The position numbers and the translations under genes were made by a program. DNA of 9,297 bases from a virus (Duplodnaviria; Heunggongvirae; Uroviricota; Caudoviricetes). How positions within the stretch are numbered: position 1 is the first letter of the stretch; every line of letters begins with the position of its first letter. The DNA is taken from the IMG/VR virus record IMGVR_UViG_2740892369_000003; one strand, written 5' to 3'. Positions 7,570-7,881 of the stretch are shown one piece after another. The notes beneath the pieces were generated by a model. That model was given only the letters and a program-made list of their open reading frames with translations. It searched no databases and had not been told where the DNA came from.

Positions 7570-7881
7570 ATGAAATTACGTGTCTGGCATATCCCGCAAG
7601 TACCTATGAAACCGTTCATTGCAGAAGTGGCAAGTGTTGAAGAGGGTGTTCGCCTGATGGGCGCACTGGCTGATTATGACGCCTTTCAGTATGACAACAA
7701 CATCAAGCCTGATTACTGCAATGCTAACGGCCTTGAGATGTGGGATGAGAGCCTTACCGATGAAGATTTATCAGAGGTGGGGCTTACTGATCGCTGGGTG
7801 GATTGGTACAGCGAATGCCAATGTTACGACGACCCACGTAAATATCTCGAAAGCCTGAAAGAAGAAACATCAGCCGCCTAA
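7570..7881 (+). CDS. Highly acidic small protein (103 aa), immediately upstream of cIII
   Basis: ORF track 7516..7881 begins at a TTG inside the terminator. I prefer the ATG at 7570, with GGAGG 4 nt upstream. About 22 Asp/Glu against 9 Lys/Arg. No family recognised. Confidence 0.6.
   Translation: MKLRVWHIPQVPMKPFIAEVASVEEGVRLMGALADYDAFQYDNNIKPDYCNANGLEMWDESLTDEDLSEVGLTDRWVDWYSECQCYDDPRKYLESLKEETSAA

Follow-up and report, generated by a model that had tools for sequence, protein, structure and literature searches.

A P22 gene 17 homologue in the PL operon of an Stx1/H-19B-type lambdoid phage and its probable counter-defence role

The window, that is, the whole stretch of 9,297 nucleotides of caudoviral DNA analysed here, carries on its plus strand an open reading frame at 7570-7881 whose translation gives 103 residues followed by a TAA stop. 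It encodes an acidic, predicted cytoplasmic protein of the Pfam family GP17 and is identified as a gene 17 homologue by Pfam, by PHROG, by its identity to the P22 gene and by an AlphaFold2 model; its product is called gp17 throughout. The protein contains 11 D and 11 E against 5 K and 4 R (pI 4.18, net charge about -13) and is the most acidic among the products of the open reading frames in the window. A Shine-Dalgarno sequence, GGAGG, lies at 7561-7565 (+), 4 nt 5' of the ATG, and is identical in P22; a longer reading frame from a TTG at 7516, falling inside the terminator hairpin described below and at odds with the P22 and H-19B annotations, was rejected. Compared with gene 17 of P22, the gene shows 86% nucleotide identity, with dS 0.57, dN 0.08 and dN/dS 0.14; it is thus real and under purifying selection. 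The protein has no membrane segment (the highest mean over 19 residues on the Kyte-Doolittle scale is 1.05, and GRAVY is -0.56) and no signal peptide.

The surrounding operon can be followed on the plus strand from its promoter to erf. A consensus scan finds a PL-like sigma-70 promoter (TTGACC-17-TATCTT) at 5370-5398, flanked by repeated TATAACCTA operator-like half sites; that it functions as a promoter is suggested by its location between the terminator on the cI side and N. It is followed at 5445-5484 by a nutL-like site, read from the sequence, with the boxA GCTCTTTAA (5445-5453) and a boxB hairpin, CCCGC-CGAAAT-GCGGG (5469-5484); a Nut boxA site is annotated in the homologous region of HK620/HK630. 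The N-type antiterminator at 5593-5865 has 90 residues and an arginine-rich N terminus (Pfam N_peptide, E 1e-15; PHROG 271, E 4e-34). Directly 5' of gene 17, scanning and folding reveal an intrinsic terminator-like hairpin followed by seven T (7529-7557): its GC-rich stem of 8 bp occupies 7529-7550, the T run extends to 7557, and its folding energy of -12.9 kcal/mol (z -3.4) is equalled by none of 200 shuffles. This terminator is kept in HK97, HK446 and P22, and is labelled 'terminator' in the HK97 record. Between it and the ATG of gene 17 no promoter-like site appears in a consensus scan, a method by which absence is unprovable. The natural reading of this arrangement, taken from the sequence, is that gene 17 would depend for its expression on PL and on antitermination by N; as it lacks a membrane segment and a promoter-like site of its own, gp17 would be a cytoplasmic protein of the lytic phase.

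Downstream of gene 17 lie cIII (7957-8091, 44 residues; Pfam cIII, E 2e-30), kil (8076-8228, 50 residues; Pfam Lambda_Kil, E 2e-20; PHROG 2055), a reading frame of 61 codons in the position of arf, between kil and erf (8210-8395; PHROG 2123, labelled 'recombinase'), and, 3' of it, erf (8455-9090), all on the plus strand. The product of the arf-position frame is a second small acidic protein, with 12 D/E against 3 K/R and a pI of 4.5. Further plus-strand genes lie upstream of the terminator. A listed frame of 148 codons at 5784-6230 overlaps the 3' end of N; its match to PHROG 7374 covers residues 29-148 only, so that translation probably begins at the ATG of 5868, just after the N stop, and its product is homologous to one of the hkaP/hkaQ products of HK620 (no assigned function). 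The last gene before the terminator, at 6956-7426, encodes a basic protein of 156 residues that is a homologue of HK97 Gp45 (PHROG 1636, no assigned function).

The identity of the gene is clear. Residues 1-98 of gp17 align with positions 1-98 of the 98 in Pfam PF17420 (GP17, named 'Superinfection exclusion gene product 17'), and the score of 179 bits (E 2e-53) far exceeds the gathering threshold of 25; the match to PHROG 1510 has E 1e-55, and no NCBIfam model matches the protein. Between gp17 and its P22 counterpart (P14109), 88 of 103 residues are identical (85%), at equal length and without gaps; most of the 15 substitutions fall in the variable acidic loop and on the surface of helix 1, and the conserved motif, the Shine-Dalgarno sequence and the position between the PL terminator and c3/cIII-kil-arf-erf are all shared. 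In P22 the genes follow one another as 24 (N), sieB on the opposite strand, ral, orf78, orf87, 17, terminator, c3, kil, arf and erf, and the layout of the window, from N to terminator-17-terminator-cIII-kil-arf-erf, matches it. That the gene is the ortholog of P22 gene 17 is thus virtually certain; the two copies differ in host, as that of P22 belongs to a Salmonella phage and that of the window to an E. coli lambdoid phage of the Stx1a-converting or H-19B type. Positions 7400-8250 are 100% identical to the Stx1a-converting phages LC744178 and LC744179 and 99.8% identical to H-19B, whose record (AAD04642.1, AF034975.3) names the gene "17: protein gp17, similar to P22 gp17 P14109"; in these three phages it is the same gene as in the window, with no difference of substance. 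The gene and its family, with a Pfam and a PHROG entry of their own, are therefore already known and annotated; among 5426 complete E. coli genomes, 135 carry gene 17 under the PGAP product name "superinfection exclusion protein".

The earlier note on this DNA had described an acidic protein of 103 residues (about 22 acidic against 9 basic) just upstream of cIII, had set it early in the PL operon behind a terminator, and had suspected P22 gene 17 at this position. The composition (22 D/E against 9 K/R) and the placement before cIII at 7957-8091 are confirmed; the operon position is borne out by the anatomy of promoter, nutL-like site, N and terminator; and the suspicion was correct, as shown by the 85% identity, the equal length and the same gene order.

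As a whole, the window is a mosaic. While its 17-cIII-kil segment is H-19B/Stx1-like (99.8-100% identity), its immunity and N region, compared with H-19B and HK620 over 3779-5600, is of the HK620 type, unlike that of H-19B: PL, nutL, N and the segment downstream (about 5385-7555) are 98.9% identical to HK620/HK630, and where H-19B has an N of 127 and a cI of 234 residues, the window has an N of 90 and a cI of 245.

Gene 17 itself sits in a slot (7558-7897) that can be delimited by aligning the window with HK97, HK446 and P22. The left flank, including the terminator, is common to all four; the right flank, before cIII, is near identical in the window, HK97 and HK446, and that of P22 aligns with it and is more diverged. 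In HK97 the slot is empty, the terminator being followed directly by cIII; in HK446 it holds an unrelated gene of 82 codons, without a Pfam match and belonging to PHROG 14587, which is labelled anti-restriction (by annotation only); in the window and in P22 it is filled by gene 17. The right junction, found by scanning at 7868-7930 (+), consists of a hairpin over the stop codon of gene 17 (GCCGC-CTAA-GCGCGGC) and a second, terminator-like hairpin with a T-rich tail 3' of the gene (7905-7924); it folds at -16.2 kcal/mol (z -6.4). Its sequence is common to HK446, HK97 and P22, and in the P22 record gene 17 ends with an annotated terminator. The first of these hairpins, in the form GCCGCCT(A/G)AGCGCGGC, overlaps the stop codon of each of the two cassettes, gene 17 and the HK446 gene. 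By this alignment, gene 17 appears as a cassette, placed in a slot of the PL operon that recombination has defined and that receives optional accessory functions, and the anti-restriction-labelled gene that takes its place in HK446 suggests that the slot is a swap site for counter-defence. Gene 17 thereby resembles the ral genes of lambda and P22 and its own HK446 slot-mate, all small accessory genes of the PL operon with unrelated sequences; Ral, however, acts on type I restriction-modification according to the P22 annotation, whereas gene 17 is linked to the prophage Fels-2.

The GP17 family was surveyed through 237 homologues from a word-indexed search, an alignment of 64, and 149 divergent representatives that are 34-66% identical to the query. 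A profile search across 1.84 billion representatives yields 1196 clusters at 50% identity with E of at most 1e-3, and 784 with E of at most 1e-10. Most members stand alone, at about 100 residues; ten longer representatives carry in addition only phage domains of no assigned function (Phage_gp49_66, DUF6166) or matches below threshold, and so offer no clue through fusion. Members also occur in strictly virulent phages (gp18 of N4, Vi01 and Kuttervirus, SPO1-like Bacillus phages), and no recognisable anti-defence island lies near the homologue in N4, Vi01 or Bacillus phage PK-3. The family motif, P9, Q10, F16, L33, Y36, D37, F39, Q40, K46, P47, D48, Y49, N51, W76 and W79, is invariant or nearly so in the 64 homologues, is retained in 85-100% of the 149 divergent representatives and is complete in the protein of the window. 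Charge is conserved more loosely: the median net charge is -12 to -14 (pI about 4.1-4.3), within a range from +1 to -19, and the most acidic segment of gp17, residues 62-72, is an insertion missing from more than 40% of the members.

The AlphaFold2 model of gp17, built from the 64-sequence alignment, has a mean pLDDT of 92.7 and a pTM of 0.81. It is compact and of the alpha/beta type, with the order beta-beta-alpha-beta-alpha-beta-alpha: strands at 3-8 and 16-20, a helix at 23-42, a strand at 52-58, a helix at 64-70, a strand at 76-78 and a helix at 89-102. The invariant residues map to the C-terminal half of helix 1, the loop that follows it and strand 4, and this clustering on the map of secondary structure suggests that in the modelled protein they may form a single functional patch or pocket. 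Structure searches with the model yielded no match among solved proteins, Ocr and ArdA included, and showed no similarity of fold to the solved nucleotide-signal sponges Tad1, Tad2 and Acb2; the ERH (enhancer of rudimentary homologue) fold is named among the closest known systems. A PDB sequence search with gp17 returns noise only (PPR repeats and Pol eta, with E of at least 0.08), and a search of BFVD returns family members only.

A lead to function comes from P22, where RefSeq annotates gene 17 with the words "allows growth on phage Fels2 lysogen". Two papers likewise state that gp17 counteracts a Fels-2 exclusion system (PMC6486243, citing Semerjian et al. 1989; PMC9409062, citing classical literature), so that knowledge of the phenotype comes from a database note and from secondary citations; the literature searched yielded no study of how gp17 works. 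Fels-1 was rejected as the excluding prophage, since the records and papers give Fels-2. By analogy, the E. coli copy would act like P22 gp17 on exclusion of the Fels-2 type, and a role of gp17 in counter-defence is accordingly judged quite probable. The public label 'superinfection exclusion protein' would then probably be a misnomer that inverts the recorded phenotype, because what P22 gains from the gene is escape from exclusion, not exclusion. Three further properties agree with the escape reading: the protein has no membrane segment, its gene lies in a repressed operon without a promoter-like site of its own, and virulent phages carry it. The name is carried through Pfam, PHROGs and PGAP, and an inverted product name for this family could mislead automated censuses of defence and anti-defence genes.

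What gp17 acts on may be sought among the accessory genes of Fels-2 (NC_010463), which has an accessory hotspot at 22639-25335 (-), bordered by the portal gene and by the tumB/replication module. STM2723.1, with 565 residues, matches AbiU in PADLOC (E 3e-112), AIPR in Pfam (E 9e-43) and PHROG 1841, which is labelled "Abi alpha-like abortive infection mechanism"; among the five accessory proteins scanned it is the only one with a match to a defence model. STM2726, of 243 residues, adjoins abiU and falls in PHROG 1353 (no assigned function). The Fels-2 record annotates a Dam-like methylase and no restriction endonuclease. The presence of abiU in Fels-2 is also stated in PMC3853940, and a review (PMC13064643) describes the AbiU model as resembling a FokI-like nuclease and lactococcal AbiU as delaying phage transcription. 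No paper linking gp17 to AbiU was found in the literature searched, so that the link is one drawn here, and AbiU/AIPR is put forward as the target only tentatively. Close DNA relatives of Fels-2 abiU, a count in which divergent AIPR proteins are not included, occur in 7 of the 5426 complete E. coli genomes as near-identical copies annotated 'AIPR family protein'; against the 135 genomes with gene 17, this means that AbiU of the Fels-2 type cannot be the sole selective pressure in E. coli. As GP17 proteins reach as far as Bacillus phages, the class of targets must be broad, and AIPR proteins may be as broad as that requires. An anti-AbiU protein called "Surt" has been validated in Vibrio phages, according to a preprint (bioRxiv 10.1101/2024.06.14.598830); in its supplement, the top anti-AbiU prediction is a protein of 195 residues from Vibrio phage 1.217.O, which is most likely Surt. 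This Vibrio phage protein shows no similarity to gp17, a result that speaks neither for nor against the AbiU idea.

The explanation preferred here, held with moderate confidence as a whole, is that the window carries an Stx1/H-19B-type copy of gene 17 whose product serves counter-defence by neutralising a target. After infection or induction, RNA polymerase modified by N would pass the terminator at 7529-7557 and gp17 would be made early from PL, as a soluble, compact, single-domain alpha/beta protein. It would then bind a prophage-encoded exclusion or abortive-infection protein and neutralise it stoichiometrically, the direct binding being a supposition, through an aromatic and polar patch formed by Q10, Y36, D37, Q40, K46, D48, Y49, N51, W76 and W79; its negative charge would be an aid and not the main principle. 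The phage could thereby multiply in cells that carry a P2-like prophage of the Fels-2 type, with AbiU/AIPR as the best candidate for the target.

Other roles have to be weighed against this one. The earlier note had pictured an ArdA/Ocr-like anti-restriction protein, in which a negative surface on gp17 would mimic DNA and occupy the DNA site of a restriction enzyme or nuclease. Ocr (T7 gp0.3) and ArdA, which neutralise host defence, are indeed small, early and strongly acidic like gp17, whose net charge of -13 and pI of 4.18 are typical of its family, and the slot-mate of gene 17 in HK446 belongs to an anti-restriction-labelled PHROG family. Ocr and ArdA are, however, elongated, helical, DNA-shaped dimers, whereas the gp17 model is a compact alpha/beta domain; a Pfam scan of gp17 at E up to 1 returns GP17 only, with no family of the Ocr/ArdA type, and no similarity in sequence or fold connects it to Ocr, ArdA or other solved DNA mimics. 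Conservation also lies elsewhere, as the invariants form an aromatic and polar motif and not a set of charges, the acidic segment 62-72 is optional and some members have a net charge of +1. The P22 record credits restriction alleviation to another gene of the same operon, ral, and in Fels-2 the only defence match among the five scanned proteins is AbiU, with no restriction endonuclease annotated; the FokI-like model of AbiU reported in PMC13064643 nevertheless makes a nuclease target conceivable. Taken together, DNA mimicry appears quite unlikely. The anti-defence idea of the earlier note thus stands in its broad sense, through homology to a P22 gene with a Fels-2 phenotype, and its more specific form, the ArdA/Ocr-like mimic, finds no support in the Pfam, PDB and structure searches.

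A ligand-binding or enzymatic role, for example as a sponge for defence nucleotides or a modifier of a host factor, would make the Fels-2 phenotype only one consequence of a more general activity. The polar invariants (Q10, D37, Q40, K46, D48, N51) beside the aromatic ones (Y36, Y49, W76, W79) do resemble a ligand pocket, and the small size of gp17 and the wide host range of its family, with Bacillus phages among its 1196 clusters, point to a target beyond one prophage protein; as neither structure nor context lends support to it, this role is regarded as unlikely. Taken literally, the product name in PGAP, PHROG 1510 and Pfam would make gp17 a true superinfection exclusion protein, shielding the infected or lysogenic cell from other phages. 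The name, however, is apparently derived from the escape phenotype of P22; the absence of a transmembrane segment and a signal peptide argues against kinship with the membrane-type proteins SieA, SieB and Imm; and gene 17, set 3' of a terminator within the repressed PL operon, shows no promoter-like site of its own. GP17 is moreover common in virulent phages, which never form lysogens, and counter-defence fits these carriers better than prophage-mediated exclusion, which is therefore considered highly improbable.

Gene 17 in the window, which encodes a very widespread small phage protein, is a rediscovery. Under the preferred reading of target neutralisation, one could go further and see in the GP17 family a widespread, structurally new class of AbiU/AIPR inhibitors, of which the 60-year-old interaction between P22 gene 17 and Fels-2 would be the founding example and which could act through the invariant patch Y36-D37-Q40-K46-D48-Y49-N51-W76-W79 and not by DNA mimicry; this extension is speculative and rather doubtful. 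If the link to AbiU/AIPR were true, a cognate inhibitor would be known for a common family of abortive-infection proteins, with a bearing on the prediction of phage host range, for example for therapeutic phages of the Kuttervirus and N4-like groups that carry gene 17, and on the spread of Stx-converting phages among polylysogenic E. coli.

Two neighbouring reading frames outside the slot may be described in addition. At the position of sieB in P22, an open reading frame of 164 codons (6261-6755, -) is antisense to the PL operon and has a hairpin on either side (6206-6220 and 6765-6787). The N-terminal half of its product resembles a coiled coil, and a CxxC...CxxC motif in the C-terminal part resembles a zinc ribbon; the protein falls in PHROG 1244 (no assigned function) and has no Pfam or NCBIfam match. 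HK446 and HK620 have a homologue in the same place, and the frame is possibly a prophage-expressed moron, a candidate gene for exclusion or defence. Directly 3' of cI, in the position that rexAB occupies in lambda, a frame of 98 codons (4863-5159, +) encodes a protein with an N-terminal hydrophobic helix that belongs to PHROG 18389 (no assigned function) and matches no Pfam or NCBIfam model; it is followed by a strong bidirectional terminator at 5164-5183 and is likely to be co-transcribed with the repressor in the lysogen.
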